From Schaalia meyeri (GTDB lineage Bacteria; Actinomycetota; Actinomycetes; Actinomycetales; Actinomycetaceae): 32,000 nucleotides of DNA. Of the stretch, positions 1,083 through 21,219 are shown one piece after another. Within the stretch, counting starts at the first letter, position 1. Every line of letters begins with the position of its first letter. The position numbers and the translations under genes were made by a program. Location of the stretch: assembly GCF_900105015.1 (NCBI RefSeq), contig NZ_FNLK01000015.1, positions 30,001 to 62,000 on the forward strand, written 5' to 3'. The notes below the pieces were generated by a model that saw nothing but the letters and a program-made list of their open reading frames with translations, ran no database searches and was not told the origin of the DNA.

Positions 1083-1260
1083 GGGTTGCTCCAACTGGAC
1101 TCGTTGATCAGATACGCGGTTTATCGTAGCCCATGTGCTACCCCTGCGGAAACGGGCCCCGGACCCCGACAGCGACAAACGGCGCGTTATTCCTGGCACA
1201 CCACCGGCCGCTGGCCGTAGAGCGGCGCGGGCTGCGGGATGTCACTCAGGGGCACGCGTT

Positions 1261-1290
1261 GGGGTCCCTGCGCGTCATCGCAGGGACCCC
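1261..1290 (-). terminator. terminator-like hairpin downstream of paralog 3
   Basis: 10-bp perfect stem GGGGTCCCTG / CAGGGACCCC with a 10-nt loop, about 80 nt after the stop at 1372. There is no U-tract, so this is an intrinsic terminator or an RNA-stabilising hairpin. Confidence 0.4.
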
Positions 1291-1371
1291 AACGTCCCCC
1301 GGCGGGCGCAGGCCCGCCGGGATTCACCGCTTCGCTCACGGGACCATGATCCCGTCACGTGGCATCACCGA

Positions 1372-1863
1372 TCAGCTGTCGAGAAGGGCCCCGAGGAAGG
1401 CCAGCATGAAGATGAGGATAAAACCGGCCAGCTCGATAATGGCGCACACCATCGCCGTCGTGCGTGCTCCCCTGAGGTCGTTCATCACGTCCGCGGGGGC
1501 GCCGAGCGAGCGGGCCTCGTTCATCAGGCTATTGCCCCAGATCCAGGCCGGCACCGACAGAAACGGACCCAGGATAAGAAGGCTCACGAACCCCATGATG
1601 CGCACCGTCGACGCGTTCGAGCGGACACGCTCAACGGCGGGATTGATGGAATACATGGGCTGTCCGTACGCGGGCTGACCGTAGGACTGGCCGTACGGGG
1701 GCTGCGCGCCAGGCTGACTACCGTAAGATGCCTGCCCACCAGGCTGGCTGCCGTATGGGGGCTGTGCACCGGGCTGTCCGTACGGGGGCTGCGCGCCAGG
1801 CTGACTGCCGTACGGGGGCTGCGCGCCAGGCTGGTTGCCATAGGGATTCGTGGGGTCGCTCAT
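1372..1863 (-). CDS. small membrane protein, Pro/Gln/Tyr-rich repeat N-terminus plus two TM helices (paralog 3 of 3)
   Basis: 163-aa ORF starting MSDPTNPY. It carries repeated [10 protein letters not shown] units, then [14 protein letters not shown]1, SLGAPADV and TM2. Third codon positions are G/C-rich. Confidence 0.8.
1691..1837 (-). repeat. in-frame tandem repeats of about 27-30 nt inside paralog 3
   Basis: Five consecutive units begin with CCGTA(C/A/T). Units 1691-1719, 1778-1807 and 1808-1837 are nearly identical (CCGTACGGGGGCTGCGCGCCAGGCTG...). They encode the [10 protein letters not shown] repeats. Confidence 0.85.
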
Positions 1864-1983
1864 CGCTTACTCCGGTCGGATAGGGGAAATATACCTCCCC
1901 CATCATACGAGGTAGATTCAGAAAAACCGAACGTAGAACCAGACGTTCGCCCACCCTCACCCATCCCGGCCCCGACCTGTTTT

Positions 1984-2023
1984 GCCAAAAGGCAGCGCGG
2001 GGGCCGAAAATCAGCCCCCGCGC
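1984..2023 (-). terminator. rho-independent terminator of nrdE
   Basis: Stem GCGCGGGGGC (1995-2004) / GCCCCCGCGC (2014-2023) with a 9-nt loop. On the minus strand it is followed by TGCCTTTTGG. It lies 20 nt after the nrdE stop. Confidence 0.7.
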
Positions 2024-2043
2024 CACCGCAAACTGAGTCAGTC

Positions 2044-4200
2044 TCACAGCATGCACGACACGCAGCCCTCAACCGCCGTGCCTTCCAGGGCCATCTGGCG
2101 CAAGCGCATGTAGTACAGGGTCTTAATGCCCTTCCTCCACGCGTAAATGTAGGACTTGTTCAGGTCGCGCGTCGTCACCGTGTCCGGGTAGAACAGCGTG
2201 AGCGACAGGCCCTGATCCACGTGCTGGGTGGCCACCGCGTACGTGTCAATGATCTTCTCCGGACCGATCTCGTACGCGTCCTGGTAGTACTCCAGGTTCT
2301 CGTTCGACATGTAGGGCGCCGGGTAATAGACGCGGCCGATCTTACCTTCCTTGCGGATCTCCACGCGGGAAACGATCGGGTGAATCGAGGATGTCGAATT
2401 ATTGATGTACGAAATGGAACCCGTCGGAGGAACCGCCTGCAGGTTCTGGTTGTACATGCCGTAACGCGCCACGTCCGCCGCCAGCGCCTCCCAATCCTGC
2501 CGGGTCGGCACCTGAATCGACGAGGCCGCAAGCAGCTCGCGGCACCTGTCCGTGGTCGGCTCCCACGCCTCGTCGATGTACTTGCGGAAGAACTCGCCGG
2601 ACGCGTACGTCGAGTCCTCGAAGCCCTCGAAACGCTCCTTGCGCTCGCGCGCGATCGTGCACGACGCCTTGATCGCCTCGAAAAGCACCGTCATGAAGTA
2701 CATGTTCGTGAAGTCGAGGGCCTCCTCGCTCCCGTAGTGCACGTGCTCGCGCGCCAGGTACCCGTGCAGGTTCATCTGCCCCAGGCCGATGGCGTGGCTC
2801 ATCGCGTTGCCGCGGGCGATCGACGGCACCGCGCCGATGTCCGACAGGTCCGACACGGCCGTCAACCCTCGGACAGCCGTCTCGATCGTCTTGGAGAAGT
2901 CCGGGGAATCCATGGTCTTGGCGATGTTGAGCGAGCCCAGGTTGCAGGAAATGTCCTTGCCCACGTGCGAATACGACAGGTCATCGTTATATGTCGAGGC
3001 CTCCGAGACCTGCAGGATCTCCGAGCACAGGTTCGACATCGTGATGCGGCCCTTGATCGGGTTCGCCGCGTTCACCGTGTCCTCGAAGACGATGTACGGG
3101 TAGCCGGACTCGAACTGAATCTCCGCGATCGTCTGGAAGAATCGACGCGCGTTGATCTTCTTTTTGTGAATGCGACCGTCGTCCACCATCTCGTGGTATT
3201 TCTCCGTCACCGAGATTTCAGAGAACGGCACCCCGTACACGCGCTCCACGTCGTAGGGGCTGAAGAGGTACATGTCCTCGTTCTTACGGGCCAGCTCGAA
3301 TGTAATATCCGGGATGACCACGCCCAGGGAGAGGGTCTTGATGCGGATCTTCTCGTCCGCGTTCTCACGCTTCGTGTCCAGGAACGCCATGATGTCCGGG
3401 TGGTGGGCATGCAGGTACACGGCGCCGGCGCCCTGGCGGGCCCCCAGCTGGTTGGCGTAAGAGAAGGAGTCCTCCAGCAGCTTCATGACCGGGACGACGC
3501 CGCTGGACTGGTTCTGGATCCTCTTAATGGGGGCGCCCGACTCGCGCAGGTTCGTCAGCTGCAGGGCGACGCCGCCGCCACGCTTGGACAGCTGCAGCGC
3601 CGAGTTGATGCCGCGCGCGATCGACTCCATGTTGTCCTCGATGCGCAGCAGGAAGCAGCTGACCAGTTCGCCGCGCGCCGCCTTGCCCGCGTTCAGGAAA
3701 GTCGGGGTCGCGGGCTGGAAGCGGCCGGCCATGATCTCATCCACGAACTGGCGAGCCAGCTCAATGTCACCGCGCGCCAGGTACATGGACACCATCGTCA
3801 CGCGGTCCTCGAAGCGCTCCAGGTAGCGTTTGCCGTCGAAGGTCTTGAGCGTGTAGGAGGTGTAGTACTTGAACGCGCCCAGGAACGTGGGGAAACGGAA
3901 CTTGTGGGCGTAGGCCCGCTTGTACAGCTCCTTGATGTCGGCGAATTCGTACTGGTCCAGGACGTGGCGTTCGTAGTAGCCCTCGTCCACCAGGTACTTC
4001 AGCTTCTCCTCCAGGTCGTGGAAGAACACCGTGTTCTGGTTGACGTGCTGCAGGAAATACTGGCGGGCAGCCGCACGATCCGCGTCGAATTGGATGCGCC
4101 CGTCCGCGTCGTACAGGTTAAGCTGCGCGTTCAGCGCGTGGTAGTCCAGCTCCGGTGAGGGAGCCTCTTCTACGCCCGTGTCGGTGTAGTTTTCTGCCAA
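2044..4200 (-). CDS. nrdE: class Ib ribonucleoside-diphosphate reductase alpha subunit
   Basis: 718 aa with an NrdE-type N-terminus ([14 protein letters not shown]), the active-site region NLCSEI and the C-terminal redox cysteine pair CVSC. It sits downstream of nrdH and nrdI. The start is TTG at 4198-4200, preceded by GAAGGA, and overlaps the nrdI 3' end by 31 nt. Confidence 0.97.
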
Positions 4201-4586
4201 AACTGTTCCAGTCCTTCGCGAACTCTGGAGACATCCTCGGACGTGCCGAGGAGCTCGAACTTATACATGTGGGGAACCCCCAGCTTGGCCGCGATGATGT
4301 CGCCCGCGATGCAGTAGGCCTTGCCGAAGTTGGTATTTCCCGACGAGATGACGCCCCTGCACAGGGCCCGGTTGTCGGGGTCGTTCAGGAACTTGATGAC
4401 CTGTTTCGGCACCGCTCCCCTGATATTCCCGCCGCCGTACGTGGGCACGATCAGCACGTATTCCTCGCTGACGCGCAACGGATCCTCCCTGGGCAGCAGC
4501 GGGATGCGCGCGGCCGGGATGCCGAGTTTCTCGACGAAGCGACGGGTGTTGCCCGTCGCCGACGAAAAGTAGACGACGCTGCCCAT
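4170..4586 (-). CDS. nrdI: class Ib RNR flavodoxin-like assembly protein NrdI
   Basis: 138 aa with the N-terminus [17 protein letters not shown] typical of NrdI. ATG at 4584-4586 is preceded by GGAAGGA. It lies between nrdH and nrdE. Confidence 0.95.
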
Positions 4587-4774
4587 GATGGTCCTTCCAG
4601 CTTGTCGGGTCGGTGGGCTTCCAGTGTCTCATTGACGAGGAGGGGGCGCGCGCGTCTGGGGCGCGTGTCCCGTGTGGGCTGATCGACGCAGCCGCGGGCG
4701 TACCGCCGAAAACGGGTTCTCGCGGCCCTCGCAGAATCCGCGCGACAGCCTGGCCGAAAACGGCGCGGATACAC

Positions 4775-4804
4775 GAAAGTCCCGGCCTGACAGCCGGGAC
4801 TTTC
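4775..4804 (-). promoter_or_regulatory. strong intercistronic hairpin between nrdH and nrdI
   Basis: 12-bp perfect stem GAAAGTCCCGGC / GCCGGGACTTTC with a 6-nt loop, starting 8 nt after the nrdH stop. No U-tract follows. Confidence 0.5.
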
Positions 4805-4812
4805 GGCGCGGC

Positions 4813-5064
4813 TCAGGCCTGCAGGGCCAGGGGGGCTGCGGCCACGGCGACGGCCTTGATGCGGTCGGGGCGGAAGCCGGACCAGTGATCTTCGCCCGCC
4901 ACGACGACGGGGGCCTGCTGGTAGCCGAGGCCCTTAATGAAGGCCAGGGAGTCAGCGTCCTGGGTGACGTCGATCTTTTCGTAAGAGACGCCCTGCTTGT
5001 CGAGGGCGCGGTAGGTGGCGTCGCACTGGGGGCAGCGGGGCTTCGAGTAAACGGTGATCGACAT
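4813..5064 (-). CDS. nrdH: glutaredoxin-like protein NrdH
   Basis: Track ORF trimmed to the ATG at 5062-5064 (MSITVYSKPRCPQC...), preceded by AAGGAG. It has the CPQC redox motif and the WSGFRPD motif characteristic of NrdH. 83 aa. Confidence 0.93.
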   Translation of the reverse strand: MSITVYSKPRCPQCDATYRALDKQGVSYEKIDVTQDADSLAFIKGLGYQQAPVVVAGEDHWSGFRPDRIKAVAVAAAPLALQA

Positions 5065-5167
5065 GTTCGTGTCTCCTTGCGGCCTGAGGCCGTACGTTTG
5101 CTTCCCTTGAGGGCTTTCTTTTCTGCCCTCGCGGGCTTCCCTGCGGCTCGTCGCCGCGAACACCACA

Positions 5168-5183
5168 ACACTACACCTCGTGG
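5168..5183 (-). promoter_or_regulatory. NrdR-box-like operator (proximal)
   Basis: The minus strand reads CCACGAGGTGTAGTGT, 11/16 matches to the published NrdR palindrome acaCwAtATaTwGtgt. The centre is 32 bp from the second box, about three helical turns. Confidence 0.55.
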
Positions 5184-5195
5184 CCCGGTGCGCAA
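5168..5195 (-). promoter_or_regulatory. candidate nrdHIE promoter
   Basis: On the minus strand: TTGCGC (5195-5190), a 16-bp spacer, then TAGTGT (5173-5168). This lies about 100 nt upstream of the nrdH ATG, and the -10 sits inside an NrdR-like box. Confidence 0.45.
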
Positions 5196-5199
5196 GCGA

Positions 5200-5215
5200 C
5201 CCCTAGATGTTGTGT
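5200..5215 (-). promoter_or_regulatory. NrdR-box-like operator (distal member of the promoter pair)
   Basis: The minus strand reads ACACAACATCTAGGGG, 12/16 matches to the NrdR consensus. It lies immediately upstream of the putative -35. Confidence 0.55.
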
Positions 5216-5503
5216 CACACTCCCAACTGTGGAGGAGGGGTGAACATTTTGTGGACGGAGCGAGCGACCGGGATCAGCGACCTCGCCCAGGGGCTTGCCG
5301 CAGCCCCGGGGAGGGGAACGCGGATGCGCGCAAACACGGGAGTTGTCGCCAACCCGGCGGCACTCCACCGCTGCGCCACGCAGCCGACAGGCCCCAGCGA
5401 AGGCTGTGGACGGCGCCTTCACCACCCTGTGCATAACCACCCGACAATCGCCCAAAAGTTGTCGAGCGTCACACCTATCAATATGGCGCTCGGGCGTGTC
5501 GCA

Positions 5504-5519
5504 TCCCCACATATAGGGG
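5504..5519. promoter_or_regulatory. additional NrdR-like box, far upstream
   Basis: TCCCCACATATAGGGG, 10/16 to the consensus. It shares the (A/C)T(A/C)TAGGGG right half with box 5200-5215. Confidence 0.3.
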
Positions 5520-5536
5520 TCGTTGGCCGCCGAGCG

Positions 5537-5552
5537 CCACTACATCTAGGGC
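5537..5552. promoter_or_regulatory. additional NrdR-like box, far upstream
   Basis: CCACTACATCTAGGGC, 11/16 to the consensus. Its core CATCTAGGG is identical to box 5200-5215, and it lies 33 bp from box 5504-5519. Confidence 0.35.
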
Positions 5553-5736
5553 CTGGGGCTTCGCCGAGCCGAGTGAAACCGCCACCGCCCCCGCATGCGT
5601 GAATCCACCCGATTCGCCGCTTTACTTGCACGCAGGGGCGACGCGGGTTTCATGATGCCGCAGCGCGAGCACAGTTACCGGCCCACGCGCACCTGCAACA
5701 AACAAACAGATCGGCCCGAAAACCAACGGCCGGACC

Positions 5737-6669
5737 CTACATCCCCAGGAACGCCTTGATCGCTGGCATCTCGCGCACGGCTTGGACCAGGCCAGCCCGG
5801 TAGGTGGCTTCCAGACGTTCGCGCCGGGACTCGGTGTTGTTGATCCACAGGTTGTCGGGCGCAAACACGTAGGCCTGCCCGCGTTCCTCGAGCTTGAAAA
5901 GGAAGCGTCGCCCCGCGTTGTAGCGGTCGGGGCGGCGGGCGACGCCCTCGTAAACGGCGGGGTAGGACCGGTAGGTGGCGCGCAGGAGGGCCCCGACGCT
6001 GGCGGACATGGGGTTTTTCACGTAGTCGCGGGGGCGGGTGAGGACGACCAGGAGCTTGCGGTAGCCCTCGCGCAGGGGCTGGTCAAAGGGGAGGCCACCG
6101 TTGGGTCCCAGCGCGCCATCGACGTATGTGTCGCCGTCGATTTCTACGGGGGGCATGAGGACGGGCAGGGTGGAGGAGGCGCGCACGATGGGGCCCAGCT
6201 GGTCCAGGCCGCGCATCTCCTGCTTGGTAAACCAGCGCACCTGACCGCGCGAGGCATTGAAGGCGGCAACGCAGGTGGCCGCGGGGTTCGCCAGGAAGGC
6301 ATCCATGTTGAAGGGGAAGGCGCCGTCGGGGTAGCAGATCCGCTGGTAGATGTATTCGGCGTTGAAGTAGCCGTGACCCTTGCGGAAGTGCCTGAGCCCG
6401 CCGAATTCGGGGTCGTCAACCAGGTCGACGAAGGTCGCGTGCGAGCGGGATGCGTCGCGGGAGGTGAAGTTGCACAGGTGGCTGGCTCCCGCGGAGACGC
6501 CGGAGACGTGGGGAAAGTTAATGCCTTCGGCGATGAGCCGGGCGACCAGCGCGGCGGTGTAGGCGTTGCGCATCCCCCCGCCTTCAAAGACGATGGCGGT
6601 GTCGTCGATGGTGACCATCGTGTCGATGGACCGCTGGGGGGTCGGGTAGTGCTCTGGGATTTCCTTCAC
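5737..6669 (-). CDS. patatin-like phospholipase family protein
   Basis: Oxyanion motif FEGGGMRNAY and nucleophile elbow GVSAG, with a later DGA (YVDGAL) consistent with the Ser-Asp dyad. The start is uncertain: GTG at 6669, or ATG at 6618 (MVTIDD...). Confidence 0.9.
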   Translation of the reverse strand: MKEIPEHYPTPQRSIDTMVTIDDTAIVFEGGGMRNAYTAALVARLIAEGINFPHVSGVSAGASHLCNFTSRDASRSHATFVDLVDDPEFGGLRHFRKGHGYFNAEYIYQRICYPDGAFPFNMDAFLANPAATCVAAFNASRGQVRWFTKQEMRGLDQLGPIVRASSTLPVLMPPVEIDGDTYVDGALGPNGGLPFDQPLREGYRKLLVVLTRPRDYVKNPMSASVGALLRATYRSYPAVYEGVARRPDRYNAGRRFLFKLEERGQAYVFAPDNLWINNTESRRERLEATYRAGLVQAVREMPAIKAFLGM

Positions 6670-6697
6670 GCTTCGACCCTACCGCCCGGCAACTGAC

Positions 6698-7141
6698 CTA
6701 CGCTCGCGTACGCCCGGTAAAGACCACGTAGTGGTAGAAGAAGAAGCGGAAGGCGGTTCCCAGCGCGAATCCGACGACGTAGGCGGCAACGTTGTCGGCG
6801 AGCGCGGAGGTCAGGCCCAGGATGTGGTGGGTAAAGAGGAGGCAGAACTGGGAGATGCCGATTCCGCAGGCGTTGGCGAAAAAGAACAGGACGGCTTCGC
6901 GAGTGGCGTTGTCGCGGGTGCGCCCGCGGTAGGTCCACAGCCGGTTGGCGATCCACGAGTACGCCGTGGCGGTCGCGGCGGCGACGAATTGAGCGGTGTT
7001 GGGGTGACCGGAAAGGACGGCGAGCGGGCCGTGTTGGAGGAGGTTGAACAGTCCGGCGTCAACGACGTACGCGGTGGCTCCGACCAGGCCGAATTGGATG
7101 AACTCGCGCACCCAGGCCAGGGCCCGTTCGGTGAGGTTCAT
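6698..7141 (-). CDS. GtrA family membrane protein
   Basis: Track ORF trimmed to the ATG at 7139-7141 (MNLTERALAWVREFIQFGLVGATAYVVDAGLFNLL...). It has four hydrophobic segments and the ANRLWTYR motif typical of GtrA-like proteins. The 147-aa size fits the family. Confidence 0.85.
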   Translation of the reverse strand: MNLTERALAWVREFIQFGLVGATAYVVDAGLFNLLQHGPLAVLSGHPNTAQFVAAATATAYSWIANRLWTYRGRTRDNATREAVLFFFANACGIGISQFCLLFTHHILGLTSALADNVAAYVVGFALGTAFRFFFYHYVVFTGRTRA

Positions 7142-7305
7142 TGACGAGGCCGGGGTGCCCCGGTCCCGGACGCTCCCCTGGTCGGGGATCGGGGCTGCGA
7201 TCGCGGTGGTTTCCCCGCGCGGCTGGTGCTGTGTTCCACTCACCCTTCCAGTGTCGCACGCTCGCGCCGCGCTTTCGCATTGTCGCCCGGCTCGGGCGCC
7301 CACCT

Positions 7306-9744
7306 ATGATGGTCCCCATGACGGACACGAACCAGCGCGGGGCGGCCGCTGCCTCGCCAATCCAGGCTCCCCCGGTTGCCCCCAAGCGTTATGGGTACCG
7401 CGTGCGAGACCACTTCGGGCAGCGTTTTGATGACCCGTGGGATTGGCTGCGCGACGCGGAGGATCCGCGGGTGCGCGCCCACCTGGACGCGGAGAACGCG
7501 TGGGCGGACACCGTCACGGAGCCGACACGCGAGGCGGCGCGGGGCCTGGTGGAGGAGGTGAAGGCGGCGACCGCCCTCACGGACGCGACCGCGCCGATCC
7601 GCCGGGGTGACTACTGGTATTTCCGGCGTTTCGCGCAGGGCCAGTCCTATGCGACGCACCACCGCGCCCCCGTTGAGCGCGACCAGTCCGGGGCTGTCCT
7701 GCCCCTGGTCCCCCTCCCGGGCGTCCCCGTCGCCGGCGAGGAGCTCCTGATCGACGAGAACGAGTGGGCGCGCGGCCAGCAGTTTTTCCGCATCGCGGAC
7801 CTGAGCCCCTCCCCCGACGGGCGGCTGATCGCGTGGGCGCGGGACACCAGCGGCGACGAACGTTACGCGTGGGTCATCCAGGAAGCCTCGGGGCGCATCA
7901 TCGACCAGGCCGTCACCGACGCGGGCTACGGCTTCGCGTGGGCGCAGGATTCGCGATCTTTCATTTACATGGGCGTTAACGGGGCGTGGCGCGCGTGCGA
8001 CGTGTGGTGGCACCGGGTGGGCACCGACGCCTCGGCTGACGAGCTGCTGCTGGTTGAGGCGGACGAGGGCTTCGAGATGGGGTTCGCACCCTCGGGGTTC
8101 CCAGGCCACGTCATCATCCACTCGTCGTCCTCGACGGCGGGGCGCGCGTGGCTGTGGCTCCCCGACCATCCGCGCGTGCGTCCCCTGCCTCTGGCCGGGG
8201 CGCGTCCGCGCACCCTGATGTCCGCCGAGTCCGCCGGGGATAGCCTCTACATCGTGCACACGGGGTGGACCCAGGAGGGGTCCCTGGCACGGGCGCCCCT
8301 GCCCGGTGGCGGCGACGCGGATGCGTTGGCCGCTTTGGGGGTCGCCTCCACCGATGCCTTCAGCCGCGCTGCCCTGGGGTGCCGCGCGCCCGGCACTCCC
8401 CTGCCGGGTCCCGAGCCCGCGCCCCTGACGCCCTTTGACACGTGGGAGCCGCTGCGCAGCGCCGGCCAGGCCGAGCGCATCATCGACGTCGAGGCGCACT
8501 CCGCCTGTGTGGCCCTGACGCTGCGTTCCGGCTCGCTCACGCAGGTTGACGTGTGGGATACGCGCGAGAGCACCCCCTCGTGGCGGCGCGTCCGCGTGTC
8601 CGCGCCGGTGCGCACCATCGCGACCGTGCCCACCCCGTGGGAGGACCCCCTGCGCGTCGAATACCAGTCGCAAACCGTTCCCCCCACCGTCGCCGAGGTG
8701 ACACTGCCCCAGGGAGGCCAGGCCGCGCCCCGGGGAGAGCTGGGCGTGCGGACCCTGCGCGTCCAGGCGGCCCCCGGCTGGGACCCCGCCGAGTACGTTG
8801 AGGAGCGAGTGTGGGTCCTGGCGCGCGACGGGGCGACCCGCATCCCCGTGACCCTGGTCCACCACCGCGACGCTCTGCCCGACGGGACGCACGCGGGCTG
8901 GCAGATCGGGTATGGCTCCTACGAGGCCAGCTACGACCCCGAGTTCGAGACGCTGCGCCTGCCGATCCTGCGGCGCGCCGTCTACGCGATCGCCCACGTG
9001 CGCGGCGGGGGTGAGATGGGTCGCGCCTGGTACGAGGATGGCAAGGAGCTGGTCAAGGAGCACACTTTCACGGACTTTATCGACGTGGCGGACTGGCTGG
9101 TTGAGTCCGGGTGGGTTGCGCCCGGGCGCCTGGTCGCCGAGGGCCGCAGCGCCGGGGGGCTCCTCATGGGCGCTGTCGTCAACGCGGCGCCCGACCGCTT
9201 CCGCGCGGTCCTGGCGGGCGTGCCCTTCGTGGACGCGCTGACGACGATCCTGGATGCGTCCCTGCCGCTCACCGTCGGCGAGTGGGAGGAATGGGGAAAT
9301 CCCGTCACCTCGCGCGCCGTTTTTGACGCGATGAGCCGCTACACGCCGTATGAGAACGTGCCCGACGGCGCGCTCCTGCCCGCGATCATGGCGACGACCT
9401 CGGTCAACGACACGCGGGTGGAGTTCGTCGAGCCCACCAAGTGGGTGCAGCGCCTGCGCGAGGCAACCGGCCAGGTGGTTGCCTCCACGGACGAGGCCGA
9501 GGCCCCAACGGGGGAGGCCGGGGCGAGCGTGGCGGCCAGCGTGAGCGGGGAGGCCGGGGCCGAGCTGACCGGTGCGCGTGAAAGGGGCGGGCTCCTGCCC
9601 GCGCGCGACCCGCGCGAGCGGCCCATCATCTTGCGCACCGAGATGGTCGCCGGGCACGCCGGCCCGTCCGGGCGCGAGGAGCGGTGGGCGGCGCGCTGCG
9701 AGGAGTTCGCCTTCGCGCTCGGCCAGGTGGGCATCACGCGGTGA
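7306..9744 (+). CDS. ptrB: S9A serine peptidase, oligopeptidase B-like
   Basis: N-terminus DDPWDWLRD, an extended N-terminal region, and a C-terminal catalytic domain with GRSAGG (Ser), NDTRV (Asp) and AGHAGPSGR (His). The start is ATG 7306 or 7318; the upstream part of track ORF 7141.. overlaps gtrA antisense and was discarded. Confidence 0.9.
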   Translation: MMVPMTDTNQRGAAAASPIQAPPVAPKRYGYRVRDHFGQRFDDPWDWLRDAEDPRVRAHLDAENAWADTVTEPTREAARGLVEEVKAATALTDATAPIRRGDYWYFRRFAQGQSYATHHRAPVERDQSGAVLPLVPLPGVPVAGEELLIDENEWARGQQFFRIADLSPSPDGRLIAWARDTSGDERYAWVIQEASGRIIDQAVTDAGYGFAWAQDSRSFIYMGVNGAWRACDVWWHRVGTDASADELLLVEADEGFEMGFAPSGFPGHVIIHSSSSTAGRAWLWLPDHPRVRPLPLAGARPRTLMSAESAGDSLYIVHTGWTQEGSLARAPLPGGGDADALAALGVASTDAFSRAALGCRAPGTPLPGPEPAPLTPFDTWEPLRSAGQAERIIDVEAHSACVALTLRSGSLTQVDVWDTRESTPSWRRVRVSAPVRTIATVPTPWEDPLRVEYQSQTVPPTVAEVTLPQGGQAAPRGELGVRTLRVQAAPGWDPAEYVEERVWVLARDGATRIPVTLVHHRDALPDGTHAGWQIGYGSYEASYDPEFETLRLPILRRAVYAIAHVRGGGEMGRAWYEDGKELVKEHTFTDFIDVADWLVESGWVAPGRLVAEGRSAGGLLMGAVVNAAPDRFRAVLAGVPFVDALTTILDASLPLTVGEWEEWGNPVTSRAVFDAMSRYTPYENVPDGALLPAIMATTSVNDTRVEFVEPTKWVQRLREATGQVVASTDEAEAPTGEAGASVAASVSGEAGAELTGARERGGLLPARDPRERPIILRTEMVAGHAGPSGREERWAARCEEFAFALGQVGITR

Positions 9745-15417: not shown

Positions 15418-15933
15418 ATGGCATCGTCATCTTCATCCACCTGCCCCATCGCCGCTAACGCGACCCGGATCGCCGGGTTCGCGGCCGGCGTCGGAGCCAC
15501 TTTTGCGTGGTATGCGCTGCCCGATTACGTGCGCTCGCGCCCGCTGCGCGGGGTGGTAAAGACGGGATTGCTGGGGGTGATCGGATGGTCACTGGTGGCG
15601 ATGATGCCAGGGGATCCGGAGCTGGCCCCCTACGACGACGAGGAAGCGGACTGCTCGGAGGGGACGCCCACCGCCGGCGAGGATCCTTTGGAGGGTGTGA
15701 CCGAGGCGCAGCCCGCCGAGCTGGCGGTGCTTGGGGGCGCGGTGGTGGGCTCCGCGGTCCTCACGGTCGCCGTTGAACGCTGGTTGTTCCGTCGCGGGGA
15801 GCGGCGCCGCGCCCGCGGGGCCCGTTTCGCCCACACCAGGCAGGGGCTCCTTCTCGGGGGACTCGCGGCTGCGCTGGACGCGCTGGCGCTCACCGACTCC
15901 GCGTGCGTCACGTGCAGGCGGACTCAGGACTGA
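15418..15933 (+). CDS. hypothetical membrane protein
   Basis: 171 aa, G/C-rich third positions, AAAGGA upstream. It has three or four hydrophobic segments and an acidic loop (PYDDEEADCSEG). No recognisable family motif. Confidence 0.6.
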   Translation: MASSSSSTCPIAANATRIAGFAAGVGATFAWYALPDYVRSRPLRGVVKTGLLGVIGWSLVAMMPGDPELAPYDDEEADCSEGTPTAGEDPLEGVTEAQPAELAVLGGAVVGSAVLTVAVERWLFRRGERRRARGARFAHTRQGLLLGGLAAALDALALTDSACVTCRRTQD

Positions 15934-16017: not shown

Positions 16018-17097
16018 TTAGCGTCCCAGCTTTGTCACGGTGAACCAGGCGACGATGGCGCCGAACCACCCGCAGAAGATGATGAGGATGGGCACGCCCA
16101 CCGCCGTCCACCAGGAGGAGGCCGGAGCGAGGAGCCCCCAGGCGCCCCACGCTGCGGGCGTGACGTTGATCGATACGAGCGAGAGCGCGGCGATGGAGAT
16201 TCCGACGGGACGCCTCCTGAACGCCGACGCGACCACCTCGCGGGGGGAGGTCTCCGTGCCGTCGGCGATCTTGGCAGCGTCTTTCCTGCATTGCAGGAGT
16301 ATCACGCGCGTCCCTAGCAGCGACCACAGCATCCCGCACACGAGGGCCGCCGTTCGATGGCCGAACGTATAAAAAACTGTCGCGGCCAGCCAAGCGGCCG
16401 CGTATACGATCTGCAAGCCGATGGATAGCGTGAACAGATTGCCGAATAGTGTCCAGTGCAGCTGGCTCTCGTAGTGGCTGCGCTCGGGATTCGTCTCCAA
16501 AAGCCCGCGGTACAGGCGGCTGCTCTCGTCGGCGTCATCGACCCTCTTCAGCTTGGCGATAGCCTCTCGGGCGCCTGTGTCCCCGGGGTCGATCTCAAGG
16601 ATGCGGCCGTATGCCTCCAACGCCTCGTCCGGATGGGAGCTACGCAGCACAAAACCGCAGGTGTTGAGCACGAAAACGTCCTCGGGGGCGAGGCGCACGG
16701 CCTCGCGCGCCTCGCGTTCCGCCTCCTCCGACCGCCCGTTCCCCCTGAGCACGCGGGCGTGGAGGGCGCGGTAGGGTCCCCACTGCGGGGCGCGTTCGAC
16801 CAACCTGGACGCGTGCTCCAGCGCCAGCGCGGCGTCGGACTCTGTGCCGGCCAACCAGTACAGCGCCTCATTGCTGTCGGGCGCGGCTTGGACAGCGCGT
16901 TTCGCGCTGGCATGGGCCTCGGCGCCCTGGTTCAGCCTCAGGTGAGCGAAGGCGAGGGTGCAGTTCACGTCGACGACCAGTTCCGGATCGGTCTGGGGGA
17001 TGGTTGCGAGCAGTTCGATGGCCTGCTCCTCCCGTCCGAGGTTAATCAGCGCCTCGGCGCGTTCGATCTGAGCGCGAGCGACGTCATCGGCTGGCAT
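16018..17097 (-). CDS. TPR-repeat protein with C-terminal four-TM membrane anchor
   Basis: ATG preceded by GAGGAGGA. The N-terminal ~210 aa consist of repeated helical-hairpin TPR-like units (e.g. AEALINLGREEQAIELL, ALEAYGRILEIDPGD, RLYRGLLETNPE). The C-terminal ~150 aa hold four hydrophobic helices. Confidence 0.8.
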   Translation of the reverse strand: MPADDVARAQIERAEALINLGREEQAIELLATIPQTDPELVVDVNCTLAFAHLRLNQGAEAHASAKRAVQAAPDSNEALYWLAGTESDAALALEHASRLVERAPQWGPYRALHARVLRGNGRSEEAEREAREAVRLAPEDVFVLNTCGFVLRSSHPDEALEAYGRILEIDPGDTGAREAIAKLKRVDDADESSRLYRGLLETNPERSHYESQLHWTLFGNLFTLSIGLQIVYAAAWLAATVFYTFGHRTAALVCGMLWSLLGTRVILLQCRKDAAKIADGTETSPREVVASAFRRRPVGISIAALSLVSINVTPAAWGAWGLLAPASSWWTAVGVPILIIFCGWFGAIVAWFTVTKLGR

Positions 17098-17173
17098 CGG
17101 TCCTCCTCGGGGTGGTTGGGCGGCGTTGGTCAGCGGGGGCCGAACGGGCGCGCGGCATACCCGCGCACCGTGC

Positions 17174-18538
17174 TCACAGCAGCTTGTTGGCTTTCATGTA
17201 GGCGGCGAGTTCGTCGTACTGCCCGTCGCGATTTCCGTAGGCGACGATGTTGCGGGCGGTGGCAAACCAGGGGCCGCCGCTGGGCCGCACCTGCTTCAGG
17301 GCCTTCTTGAAGTCCTGCATGGTGACCATGCGGACGTTGCCGGTCTTCAGGGAGTCCATCATCGCGTACTCGACGGCGCTGTCTGCCAGGTGCGCCAGGT
17401 CCGCGCCCGTGAAACCGGCGGTCTGGCGCGCCAGCTGTGCCAAGTCGATCCCCTCCACGGGACGTGACCGCAGGTGGTGATGGAGGATCGCGTGCCGGGC
17501 GGGTTCATCCGGGGGCAGCACCGCAACGGACCGATCGAAGCGACCGGGCCTGCGCAACGCCGGATCCACGTCCCAGGGGACATTCGTGGCGGCCAGGATA
17601 AAGACCCCCTCGTTCGTGCCGTCGATGCCGTCCATCTCGGTGAGCAGCTGGTTGGTGACGCCCCGCCATCCGGAGCTGGTCGACTGGCTGCGCTTCTGTC
17701 CGATCGCATCAATCTCGTCGAGGAAGAGAACCACGGGTGCGTGGGCGCGGGCGGTCTCGAAGAGGGAGTGGAGATTCGCCTCCGAGTTGCCAATGTACTG
17801 GTCGAGGATGTCGGTGAGGGTGATGTTCATGAAGGAAGCCCCCATCTCGCCGGCGAGGGCTCGCGCAATGTACGTCTTGCCGCATCCCGGGGGTCCGTAG
17901 AGCATGAGGCCGCCCTTGAGGCTCTTGCCGTAGAGACGACGCATCTCCGGATTGCGCAGGGGCGCCAGGAACGCCATTGCGAGGCGGTCCTTGACGGCCT
18001 GCATCCCGCCCACGTCGGCGAGGGTGACGGTGGATGCCTCGACCTCCCACACGCCGTCTTTGCCCCCATCCGTCCCGTCGTTCAGCTCGGGCTCGCTTCC
18101 TTGGAGGAACGCCGGTGCGGGTCCCCCGACCTGCTGCTCGGCGCTGTCCCAGTCGAAGTCTTCTGAGTCCTGGGCCGTGGCCTCCTCGACGGTGTTGTCG
18201 GCCGGTCGCCTCTCGTCCGCCGCCTCCCGGTTCTGCGTCTCCGGCGCGTCGAACGGGGCGCCGCTCTCAGGGGAGTTCCCTGGGCCCGTCTCTGGGGCGT
18301 CGGCGGCCTCTTCTCCGCTGGTGCTTAGGGGCATATGGGGAGCACCGATGGCTTGCCTCATGAGGGCGACGGCGCGCTCGTTGCTCGGCTGTGAGGCCAG
18401 GACAACGCCCAGGTGGGGGACTGCTTCCGCGCCCCGCCCATCCGCGATGAGCAGCTCGGCCAGGTGCTCGCGCAGCGGCAGGTCCTGCGGTCGCTCCGCG
18501 ACGATGGTTGTGAGGGAGTCAATCAATGGGTTCGTCAT
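17174..18538 (-). CDS. classical-clade AAA+ ATPase with N-terminal TPR/MIT-like helical domain and acidic disordered linker
   Basis: Walker A GPPGCGKT, pore-loop YIG, Walker B VVLFLDEIDA and second region of homology ATNVPWDVDPALRRPGRFDRSV. The N-terminal ~65 aa are helical (LREHLAELLIADGRGAEAVPHLGVVLASQP), followed by ~110 acidic low-complexity residues. There is a C-terminal extension after VRPS. Confidence 0.9.
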   Translation of the reverse strand: MTNPLIDSLTTIVAERPQDLPLREHLAELLIADGRGAEAVPHLGVVLASQPSNERAVALMRQAIGAPHMPLSTSGEEAADAPETGPGNSPESGAPFDAPETQNREAADERRPADNTVEEATAQDSEDFDWDSAEQQVGGPAPAFLQGSEPELNDGTDGGKDGVWEVEASTVTLADVGGMQAVKDRLAMAFLAPLRNPEMRRLYGKSLKGGLMLYGPPGCGKTYIARALAGEMGASFMNITLTDILDQYIGNSEANLHSLFETARAHAPVVLFLDEIDAIGQKRSQSTSSGWRGVTNQLLTEMDGIDGTNEGVFILAATNVPWDVDPALRRPGRFDRSVAVLPPDEPARHAILHHHLRSRPVEGIDLAQLARQTAGFTGADLAHLADSAVEYAMMDSLKTGNVRMVTMQDFKKALKQVRPSGGPWFATARNIVAYGNRDGQYDELAAYMKANKLL

Positions 18539-18699
18539 ACATTCAGCCTACCGCGCAGTGTGGTCGGGACAATTTGGGCCCCTCCGGTGGGCGCATGCCC
18601 GCCGGGGATGAGTGTCCTCGGCCCCCGCCCCGAGGGGCTCCCGGTCGGCGGCGCGCCGAGGCGTGGGCGGGGCCGGGGTGCGTGTGCTGACACACCGTT

Positions 18700-19281
18700 T
18701 TACAGCGTGCGGGCGACGATGCGGCGTTGCGCCTGCCAAGAGCGCCACGCGTTGATCAGCCCCATGGCCAGGGGCAGGGAAACCAGGGCTGCCAGCATGG
18801 ATGATTCGGCGGCGATGGCGACACCCGCGACGGCCAGGAATCCGACGAACCAGGCCAGCTGCATGCGCGCGCAGGCGGTCATGATGGAGCCGTCGGCGCG
18901 GGCGGCGCGCAGCGCGACGTGGGAGTCGGAAAAGATGACCAGATCTTCGTTCCCGGACCATTCGCGGCGCCATTGCCGGTCTGTCACCATGAGGGCAGCC
19001 AGGAGCGCCAGGAGAACCAGGCCTCCCCCGGTGATGAGGATGATGACTGCGAGGGCGAACTTTTGGGTGCTCGGCTCTGGCATGGCGGCCATTTCGACGA
19101 CGGCGATGATGGAGCTGACAGAGACGATGAGGAGGACGGTGACGACGACGATGGCGAGATTGATGCGTCCCGCGATCGTTTGTCCGGCCCGCACGCGGTT
19201 GTAGCGACGCAACCTGTCGTTACCCAAGCGGTAGGGCCTGGGCGTCGCATCGAATTCTGCGGATTTGTATCTCACCCTCAC
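18700..19281 (-). CDS. hypothetical polytopic membrane protein
   Basis: 193 aa, G/C-rich third positions. The architecture is 2 TM, a ~35-aa soluble insert and 2 TM. It has a GTG start without an obvious SD (GTG 19281 or 19275). Confidence 0.65.
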   Translation of the reverse strand: MRVRYKSAEFDATPRPYRLGNDRLRRYNRVRAGQTIAGRINLAIVVVTVLLIVSVSSIIAVVEMAAMPEPSTQKFALAVIILITGGGLVLLALLAALMVTDRQWRREWSGNEDLVIFSDSHVALRAARADGSIMTACARMQLAWFVGFLAVAGVAIAAESSMLAALVSLPLAMGLINAWRSWQAQRRIVARTL

Positions 19282-19300
19282 ACCATATCGTTGATTGTTG

Positions 19301-19330
19301 ATATTTCGCGCCTTTCCCGAAAATTGTCAA
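19301..19330 (-). promoter_or_regulatory. candidate promoter for the 18700-19281 gene
   Basis: On the minus strand: a perfect TTGACA (19330-19325), an 18-bp spacer and a weak -10 AAATAT (19306-19301). It lies in an AT-rich island just upstream of the GTG start. Confidence 0.3.
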
Positions 19331-19797
19331 GTGTCAAATCCGTAACATTTTTAACGGTCAGCATACGGGCAAAATGCGACGCGAACCCGCCACCGACCAC
19401 CCGTTGACGATCCCGTGTCGGCGACCGTGTTGCGGACGGCACCCGATCCGGCGACAACGACCGCCCGCGCGAATGCCACGGCCGAGGCGCCCAGGGGTGA
19501 GGATTTTCGCGGCATCGCGGGAGGATGGGCGCGCCCCACACCCGGGCTGAGCAGGCGTATTATGCTCGGGCGATGCTGCTGATCCGCACGCCGAGGGGCG
19601 GCTCCCGGGTGGCCTCATAAGCTCTCGGGTGCAGGAGAACACCGCGGCCAGCGCACCCCGGGCCAGCCTGTGACACCCGATCGGTCGTGTCCAATGTTTG
19701 ACACCGCGTTGCACACAGGGGATCGGTCGGAGTAGGCTGCCCGGCAAGCAACGCGTCACCGGCGAGTGTTGCAGCACCGTATCGTTGGAGTGAATCG

Positions 19798-20094
19798 ATG
19801 AGCACCCCCAAGTGTTTCGGCGGTGGATTCATCAGCACCCGGCTCAAGGACATCCCCATCCCGCCCGCCCCTTCCACCGGCAGCGCCCACAACGTGCTCC
19901 TGACCAGCCACCTGGCCGCACTGAACAACACCATCAGCCAGGTCGCCTGGATCGCAAACGGAATCAGCCTGGGCCTGTCGGCCGCCACACACGATTTCCA
20001 GTGCACGGACGACGCGGCCGCCGACGCGCTCCACGAAATCCAGCGATACAACGACCTGTATAACAACCGCTACCCTGTGCGGCCCTCCATGTAA
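19798..20094 (+). CDS. hypothetical small protein (98 aa)
   Basis: ATG preceded by GGAG 9 nt upstream. Third codon positions are overwhelmingly G/C, unlike the flanking non-coding DNA. The core is predicted helical (HNVLLTSHLAALNNTISQVAWIANGISLGLSAATHDF). No family recognised. Confidence 0.6.
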   Translation: MSTPKCFGGGFISTRLKDIPIPPAPSTGSAHNVLLTSHLAALNNTISQVAWIANGISLGLSAATHDFQCTDDAAADALHEIQRYNDLYNNRYPVRPSM

Positions 20095-20145
20095 AGATGA
20101 GGCCCCCGACCGCGGCGCGTCCCGCGTCCGACCCCGGAGCGGTAA

Positions 20146-21219
<1,074 letters not shown>

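Follow-up and report, generated by a model that had tools for sequence, protein, structure and literature searches.

Genomic locus

The window analysed in this study was a stretch of 32,000 nucleotides (nt) of Schaalia meyeri DNA. The host is a high-GC actinomycete of the Schaalia/Actinomyces group, and the best protein matches were found in Schaalia. Among nrdF, fhaA, fhaB, pstP and a rodA-type gene, the window contained a gene for an AAA ATPase, followed on the same strand by a gene for a membrane protein with tetratricopeptide repeats (TPRs) and transmembrane (TM) helices. These two genes were interpreted, with moderate confidence, as a co-transcribed and co-evolving two-gene module that provides a membrane-anchored or membrane-adapted AAA unfoldase. 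A third gene adjoined them upstream. The genes were as follows.

17174–18538, minus strand: AAA ATPase of 454 amino acids (aa), supported by its open reading frame (ORF), Pfam AAA and AAA_lid_3 matches, sequence motifs and full-length relatives
16018–17097, minus strand: TPR membrane protein of 359 aa, the conserved partner of the ATPase, supported by Pfam TPR matches, AlphaFold2 (AF2) modelling, topology and partner conservation
18700–19281, minus strand: protein of 193 aa with 2 + 2 TM segments and a homologue in loci L001–L004

The three adjoining same-strand genes had been described in a sequence-only reading of the window, and their ORFs were recovered with gaps of 161 nt and 76 nt. The G+C content at third codon positions (GC3) was 0.82–0.85 in all three ORFs, a gene-like coding signal. 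An Rfam scan of the whole window gave no match.

Conservation of the ATPase and its membrane partner

Relatives of the ATPase were searched for among 1.8 billion cluster representatives. Many relatives of 400–480 aa aligned with the window ATPase from end to end at 41–57% identity, so that the protein, which had been regarded as an orphan, belongs instead to a large family. The relatives were composed of four common parts: an N-terminal helical hairpin (TPR), a linker that varied in length, a single AAA cassette, and an extension of ~35 residues at the C-terminus with the consensus PSxxxWFxTARNxxx[FY]AN.xG.YD[DE]L..YLK. From this extension a signature, W..ARN...[FY]xN..G.Y[DN][DE]L..Y[LM]K, was defined in the present analysis; it was common to loci of eight phyla and was also carried by the window ATPase.

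A scan of one genome per species yielded 80 loci, which were distributed over Actinomycetota (including Streptomyces, Micromonospora, Nocardia, Mycolicibacterium, Arthrobacter, and Acidimicrobiia), Acidobacteriota, Cyanobacteria, Bacteroidota, Planctomycetota, Verrucomicrobiota, Myxococcota, and Bacillota. Thermoanaerobaculia, Calothrix, and Opitutaceae were among the non-actinobacterial sources. AAA loci of DPANN archaea also appeared among the scan results and were devoid of the C-terminal extension. The two proteins were named in the databases only as "AAA family ATPase" and "tetratricopeptide repeat protein".

When the window TPR-TM protein was used as a tblastn query, many loci gave a match immediately 3' of the ATPase gene. 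The partner was therefore counted in the 64 loci that had the extension and at least 1.1 kb of downstream sequence, with the downstream ORFs re-called. In 49 of these 64 loci, the adjacent downstream gene encoded a protein of at least 280 aa whose C-terminal part contained TM segments, whereas such a TPR-TM-type neighbour accompanied only 1 of 11 AAA loci without the extension. The ATPase and partner genes overlapped by 4 nt (ATGA) in 25 loci, and the gap was between −8 and +20 nt in 42. Pfam found TPR matches in every partner scanned (41/41) and nothing else. In L030, L067, L069, L071, L072, and L083, a gene with TPRs and TM segments was located directly upstream instead of downstream. All-versus-all clustering of the flanking ORFs of the 80 loci showed that only the ATPase and TPR-TM families recur, with no third family extending beyond single genera.

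Comparative genomics thus ties the ATPase strongly to the TPR membrane protein: their link, previously noted from adjacency, is now based on cross-phylum conservation and apparent translational coupling and not on adjacency in one genome. Neighbourhood conservation held for this pair and failed for the 193-aa protein.

Some loci showed other arrangements or neighbours. In Fulvivirga (L083), TPR-TM genes flanked the ATPase gene on both sides. A Bacillota variant (L069, positions 4212–6957, and L071) comprised a small multi-TM protein (148–209 aa), a TPR protein of ~290 aa with one C-terminal TM segment, and then the ATPase, a gene order inverted relative to Actinomycetota; in L075, also from Bacillota, gene calling recovered the small TM protein and the ATPase alone. 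In four Streptomyces species (L013, L016, L024, and L028) the pair closely followed hrcA-dnaJ and a gene for a nitronate monooxygenase, and in Actinomyces oris (L092) it was located ~3 kb from dnaK-grpE-dnaJ. These heat-shock neighbours were considered as a functional clue, a weak hint at proteostasis, and rejected as too weak and not general. The L092 record, NZ_CP116225.1 (A. oris "plasmid unnamed1", 415 kb), carries dnaK, grpE, and dnaJ and looks like a chromosomal fragment or chromid and not a true plasmid.

Structure of the ATPase

The ATPase was divided into four regions.

18341–18538, minus strand: N-domain, residues 1–66, four short helices equivalent to ~1.5–2 TPR repeats, assigned by AF2, TPR_19 and PDB profile matches
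18044–18340, minus strand: acidic disordered linker, residues 67–165, assigned by composition, alignments and AF2
17279–18043, minus strand: AAA core and lid, residues 166–420, with Walker A/B, YIG, N319, R330 and R333, assigned by Pfam, profile scores and invariant columns
17177–17278, minus strand: family-specific C-terminal extension, residues 421–454, conserved from Actinomycetota to Bacteroidota, Cyanobacteria and Firmicutes

The AAA core contained the Walker A motif GPPGCGKT at residue 215, the pore loop YIG at residue 248, the Walker B motif DEID at residue 274, the sensor-1 residue N319, and the arginine fingers R330 and R333 inside the sequence RRPGRFDR (residues 329–336). Pfam matched AAA (E-value 3.7e-41) and AAA_lid_3 (5.2e-10), in agreement with a classical-clade protein that has a single cassette. 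Neither a protease domain (Pfam) nor a TM segment (hydropathy) was found in the ATPase. The motifs, the acidic linker, and the lack of protease and TM segments were each as the sequence-only reading had listed them. The Walker A and B motifs, sensor 1, and the arginine fingers were invariant across the aligned family, and a threading-competent ATPase is predicted on this basis.

The N-domain was modelled by AF2 with a predicted local distance difference test (pLDDT) value of ~90, and its helices spanned residues 4–15, 20–32, 36–49, and 54–64. TPR_19 matched this domain in all 18 family members tested, while no MIT match was obtained at E ≤ 1 in the same members. A profile of the N-domain searched against the PDB retrieved TPR proteins only (consensus TPR, OGT, PEX5, APC7, and MamA), and the MIT domains of Vps4, spastin, and katanin were absent from the top 60 matches. 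The N-domain, previously described as TPR- or MIT-like, is a TPR domain and not an MIT domain.

The linker was strongly acidic, with 27 Asp and Glu residues against 4 Lys and Arg residues between positions 71 and 175. Its length was hypervariable among the relatives, yet it contained a conserved motif, FDWxxAE(E)Q, near residues 128–136, which reads FDWDSAEQQ in the window ATPase. In the AF2 model the linker had pLDDT values below 35, except for a short helix at residues 130–136.

The C-terminal extension of the window ATPase had the motif PSxxPWFxTARNxxxFxNxxGxYDELxxYhK, and its sequence was PWFATARNIVAYGNRDGQYDELAAYMK. The chain ended in ...KANKLL, with neither an HbYX motif nor a penultimate tyrosine. 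A profile of the extension returned nothing significant from the PDB; a repeat of the clathrin heavy chain was matched weakly, with an E-value of 0.15.

Comparison of the AAA core with known families

The AAA core was scored against profiles of known AAA families (bits/cut-off). The values were 214/600 for FtsH (TIGR01241), 207/803 for CDC48 (TIGR01243, D2 only), 205/500 for PAN, 160/650 for CdvC/Vps4, 128/505 for Mpa (pup_AAA), 113.6/510 for IteA (NF042959), and 37.8/467 for EccA (TIGR03922). The CdvC score was 20–54 bits under those of Cdc48, PAN, and FtsH in each of eight members tested, including the window protein and members from Calothrix, Bacteroidota, Planctomycetota, and Opitutaceae. 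The top PDB matches of the core were p97/Cdc48, and the Vps4_C domain was matched at 15.9 bits, under its cut-off of 21.3 (E-value 0.013). The RRPGRFDR sequence corresponds to what we take to be the arginine-finger form of Cdc48, PAN, and FtsH, and not to the RRF/LxKR form of the meiotic clade.

The protein shared the RPGRFD motif, AAA_lid_3, and its best profile and PDB matches with the D2 cassette of Cdc48/p97, PAN/Rpt, and FtsH, and it had in common with p97 D2 an aromatic pore loop that was followed by G-x-SEAN. The layout resembles that of Vps4, katanin, and spastin, but the cassette appears to lie outside that clade, with a core most like those of Cdc48 D2, PAN, and FtsH. Accordingly, the earlier assignment to Vps4/katanin/spastin-type remodelers held for the layout and not for the AAA core.

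The distinction from FtsH, ARC/Mpa, and EccA that had been drawn was borne out by the low scores and by domain content. FtsH has TM helices of its own at the N-terminus and an M41 zinc protease at the C-terminus, both of which are lacking in the window ATPase. PAN and ARC/Mpa have a coiled coil, an OB domain, and an HbYX tail that docks on the 20S proteasome, and none of these was present. EccA, too, is an ATPase of actinobacteria that carries TPRs at its N-terminus; however, it has a CbbX-type AAA domain and a long TPR domain and is encoded in an ESX locus, whereas the window ATPase has nrdF, fhaA, and a hydrolase gene as neighbours and no ESX genes nearby. Cdc48, VAT, and Cpa contain two tandem AAA cassettes and a double-psi-barrel N-domain, in contrast to the one cassette and TPR N-domain of the window ATPase.

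Structure of the TPR membrane protein

The 359-aa protein was composed of six TPRs, matched by Pfam over residues 1–205, and a region of a connector helix and four TM helices (residues 206–359). Its AF2 model had a pLDDT of 80.8 and showed 12 TPR helices followed by the membrane helices, and hydropathy gave about four TM segments in the C-terminal 140 residues. The distribution of Lys and Arg residues (positive-inside) placed the TPR array, the TM2–TM3 loop, and the C-terminus in the cytoplasm, and by the same distribution the N-termini of both membrane proteins (359 and 193 aa) were cytoplasmic. No signal peptide was found in the TPR-TM protein. The topologies that had been read from the sequence, 2 + 2 TM segments in the 193-aa protein and a cytoplasmic TPR array with four TM helices in the 359-aa protein, agreed with these data. 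A Foldseek search of the model against the PDB, one of the checks proposed with the sequence-only reading, gave generic TPR solenoids only and left the TM part unmatched.

The number of TM helices in the partner varied from 1 to 8 across the family. The TM region was the least conserved part, below the TPR array, and was assigned to no Pfam family in the 41 partners scanned. Because of this variable helix number, low conservation, and absence of a Pfam family, the TM region behaves more like an anchor than like a conserved channel or enzyme.

Covariation of the pair in Schaalia

Five flanking proteins (NrdF, the hydrolase, FhaA, FhaB, and PstP) were compared among Schaalia loci together with the pair. 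Between the window and L002/L090, the flanking proteins were 87–96% identical, the AAA core 78–85%, and the TPR domain 51–55%. Between the window and L089/L005, the flanking proteins were 78–94% identical, the AAA core 92–95%, and the TPR domain 83–88%. All five flanking proteins were thus closer to L002/L090 than to L089/L005. Because the AAA core and the TPR domain co-vary against the relationships of the flanks, the pair moves or evolves as one matched cassette whose relationships disagree with those of the genes around it. This suggests recombinational exchange of matched AAA and TPR cassettes in Schaalia.

Start regions of the two genes

The following elements were located ahead of the two genes.

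17101–17108, minus strand: ribosome-binding site GAGGAGGA, 3 nt upstream of the ATG of the TPR-TM gene and inside the 76-nt spacer, identified from the sequence
18545–18550, minus strand: TAGGCT, a −10 hexamer of the TANNNT type, exactly 6 nt before the ATG of the ATPase gene, identified by its identity across five Schaalia loci

No terminator-like site was found in the 76-nt spacer between the ATPase and TPR-TM genes. In the 161-nt spacer upstream of the ATPase, TAGGCT-N6-ATG was identical in the five Schaalia loci, while the remaining spacer sequence and the gene further upstream differed. Actinobacterial promoters carry a TANNNT −10 element at positions −12 to −7. Since the spacing of TAGGCT-N6-ATG fits this placement, a leaderless start is predicted: TAGGCT would be the ATPase's own promoter, and an mRNA for the AAA and TPR-TM proteins would start at the ATG. 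A sigma-70 promoter scan detected nothing, and the terminator-like sites that were found were all within coding regions. Folding of the 161-nt spacer gave a z value of −1.6, no more stable than shuffled sequences, and a terminator hairpin was unsupported.

Proposed mechanism

The TPR membrane protein would anchor a hexameric AAA unfoldase of the classical type to the cytoplasmic face of the membrane and/or act as its substrate adaptor. The partner would be embedded by its C-terminal helices, displaying the six-repeat TPR array to the cytoplasm, and would probably also select clients. The ATPase could dock on it through one of three elements: its own TPR hairpin N-domain, the FDWxxAE linker motif, or the family-specific C-terminal tail. 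Membrane-proximal clients would then be threaded through the YIG pore and unfolded, extracted, or disassembled, with no protease attached. A direct coupling of the ATPase and its partner is supported by the covariation of the AAA core and the TPR domain within Schaalia.

This arrangement would be analogous to LapB-FtsH, Pex15/26-Pex1/6, or Msp1. In Escherichia coli, LapB (YciM) is a membrane-anchored cytoplasmic TPR adaptor for a classical AAA protein, FtsH, at the inner membrane, and the pair may work like it. However, LapB has an N-terminal anchor and a rubredoxin domain, the lapB and ftsH genes do not form an operon pair, and its homology to the window partner is limited to the TPRs, with weak profile matches (E-value 8.5e-5); FtsH differs from the window ATPase in having its own TM helices and protease. 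Pex1/Pex6 with Pex15/26 and Msp1/ATAD1 are protease-free AAA proteins that are held at the membrane by an anchor protein or their own helix and extract or recycle membrane-associated proteins. These systems are eukaryotic, have other N-domains, and have no TPR partner, and the analogy is functional only.

Several observations weigh against a membrane-anchored unfoldase. The divergence within Schaalia was fast and cassette-like, with TPR domains of 51–55% identity in genomes whose neighbouring genes were 90–96% identical. The partner was a mosaic within the gene, the TPR and TM parts being 76% and 98% identical to the window protein in P0122 and 88% and 53% identical in P0123, and the two halves seem to recombine independently. 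The gene immediately upstream of the ATPase differed among lineages. In Streptomyces, trypsin-like peptidase-STAND NTPase-TPR regions were fused to the AAA protein of the family (L044, L048, and P0199); these fusions of about 1370–1490 aa had nSTAND5/ATPase_2 N-terminal to the AAA cassette (L044, positions 2938–7341) and were followed by a gene with TPRs and 5–8 TM helices. A peptidase-STAND-TPR-AAA architecture is typical of conflict or cell-death systems. Family members were also found in the arms of Streptomyces linear plasmids, beside insertion sequence (IS), TOPRIM, and nuclease genes. Taken together, these features fit a conflict system better than housekeeping proteostasis. In addition, the AF2 model of the whole ATPase, built on a Schaalia-only alignment, was poor (pLDDT 45.7), and the N-domain alone was usable; and conservation of the hexamer was the sole basis of the predicted leaderless promoter.

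Alternative explanations

The pair could instead act in conflict or defence. In this explanation, the TPR array would sense an invader or stress and the AAA protein would activate or reset a membrane-damaging partner, or the pair would be the output arm of STAND-type immunity. The Streptomyces fusions, which again have the TPR-TM gene downstream, the copies near the ends of linear megaplasmids, the exchangeable allelic cassettes out of step with their flanks, the partner mosaicism, and the variable upstream gene all favour it, and the nearest PADLOC model was that of the anti-phage protein IetA. The IetAS system, however, needs an IetA above the cut-off and the serine protease IetS, whereas the AAA core of the window ATPase reached only 115 bits in PADLOC (114–115 bits for IetA/IteA against a cut-off of 510) and IetS was not present. 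PADLOC gave only sub-threshold core matches to IetA and TRIP13 and matched neither membrane protein. The pair occupied a fixed chromosomal position in every Schaalia/Actinomyces locus examined, amid the housekeeping genes nrdF, fhaA/B, pstP, and the hydrolase gene, and other copies were beside hrcA-dnaJ in Streptomyces or near dnaK-grpE-dnaJ in A. oris. A collection of 50,697 phage records contained no family member, and a TM helix number of 1 to 8 is unlike a conserved pore. A conflict or defence function is considered rather unlikely.

The two roles could also be combined. The pair would be a protease-free, Msp1- or Pex1/6-like machine for extraction or remodelling of membrane proteins, in which the TPR adaptor and the AAA core are swapped between strains as matched alleles. 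This is regarded as unlikely. If it were true, the clients would be fast-evolving, such as invader or competitor proteins at the membrane, and a system conserved in at least eight phyla would connect membrane proteostasis with conflict.

It had also been proposed that all three genes form one membrane-extraction or stress system. The 193-aa gene is on the same strand and adjoins the pair, and it is a real gene, with a GC3 of 0.82 and homologues of 70% identity that are also next to the pair in L001–L004. These homologues, however, were confined to one Schaalia subgroup, and no Pfam, NCBIfam, or PADLOC match was obtained for the 193-aa protein. Its position upstream of the ATPase was taken by an acidic protein of 208–224 aa in L005 and L089, by a 319-aa protein with weak TPR matches and C-terminal hydrophobic helices in L090 and L091, and by a divergent MFS transporter gene in A. 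oris. The conserved TAGGCT-N6-ATG between the genes would, moreover, let the ATPase be expressed from a separate start. The 193-aa protein is specific to its lineage, is presumably encoded in a transcription unit of its own, and lies outside the conserved module; a three-gene unit is decidedly improbable.

Least tenable, and very improbable, is a Vps4/ESCRT-like function, in which a bacterial Vps4 derivative would disassemble polymers of the partner, in place of Snf7/ESCRT-III, and so remodel or repair the membrane: the small helical N-domain, flexible linker, single cassette, and C-terminal extension match that layout and Vps4_C gave a faint match, but the TPR nature of the N-domain, the CdvC and Vps4_C scores, and the RRPGRFDR sequence all count against it, no Snf7 or PspA Pfam match was found in the flanking proteins scanned, and we know of no TPR solenoids with ESCRT-III-like polymerisation.

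Neighbouring genes

Further features were observed around the module. The 319-aa gene of L090 (positions 4982–5941) was also present in L091 and in L001–L004 (about 4564–5523), and the window was without a copy; the protein looks like a second partner-like paralogue. Loci L001–L004 also contained, between nrdF and the ATPase region (~1127–4340, minus strand in locus coordinates), five genes without Pfam matches that encode proteins of 399, 146, 177, 229, and 122 aa. This five-gene stretch was not in the window, so the spot is variable.

In the window, ~950 bp separated the 193-aa gene from nrdF (19282–20229), and G+C content was lower, 0.62–0.63, across the 2-kb stretch 19001–21000. A 98-aa ORF was located there (19798–20094, plus strand; GC3 0.86) and clustered with ORFs at the same position in L002–L004. 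It had no Pfam match, and the region contained no Rfam family.

On the other side, a 171-aa ORF (15418–15933, plus strand) was convergent to the TPR-TM gene. The encoded protein, which was without a family assignment, had a conserved ERWLFRRGERRRA motif and a single clearly hydrophobic segment. All the Schaalia loci seen carried it in this place, with 52–72% identity.

Relation to earlier work and significance

A comparative genomics study from 2024 (PMC11237479) mentioned a dyad of a "VPS4-like AAA + TPR-6TM", with Oter_1429 (ACB74714.1) of Opitutus terrae as the exemplar. The dyad was reported from Cyanobacteria, Bacteroidota, Verrucomicrobia, Nitrospirae, and Planctomycetes, with Actinomycetota not listed; it was framed as Vps4/ESCRT-like with snf7 "displaced", and it was described as "suggesting membrane proximal action". 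The remark, made in the main text, the supplementary text, and Table S3, was brief and computational, and no experiments accompanied it. The ATPase/TPR-TM family is taken to be this dyad, matched by its description and with the Opitutaceae locus L053 as a proxy for ACB74714.1. Both consist of a same-strand, single-cassette AAA protein with a small helical N-domain and then a protein with TPRs and C-terminal TM helices, and loci from the phyla of PMC11237479 showed the same pair, except for Nitrospirae, which was not among the 80 loci. The six TM helices described there differ from the four of the window partner; with 1 to 8 across the family, the number is not constant. The tests of the N-domain and the AAA core did not support the MIT and Vps4 labels of PMC11237479.

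The pair was not described in two papers on conflict systems (PMC7159879 and PMC8195603) or in one on ESCRT evolution (PMC11188069). No experimentally characterised system of an AAA protein and a TPR membrane protein was found in the literature, as the sequence-only reading had supposed; the dyad, however, had already been noted computationally. The present analysis adds to that remark the actinobacterial branch, the form with four TM helices, and corrected assignments of the domains.

In eukaryotes, membrane-protein extraction relies on classical AAA unfoldases such as Cdc48 in endoplasmic reticulum-associated degradation (ERAD), Msp1, Pex1/6, and Vps4, and in bacteria FtsH is the main well-understood membrane-associated classical AAA protein. 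What had been a guess from adjacency is now a defined family with a diagnostic C-terminal motif, corrected domains, and a clear two-gene unit. The pair of ATPase and TPR membrane protein is a candidate for a second, protease-independent, membrane-associated AAA system of bacteria.

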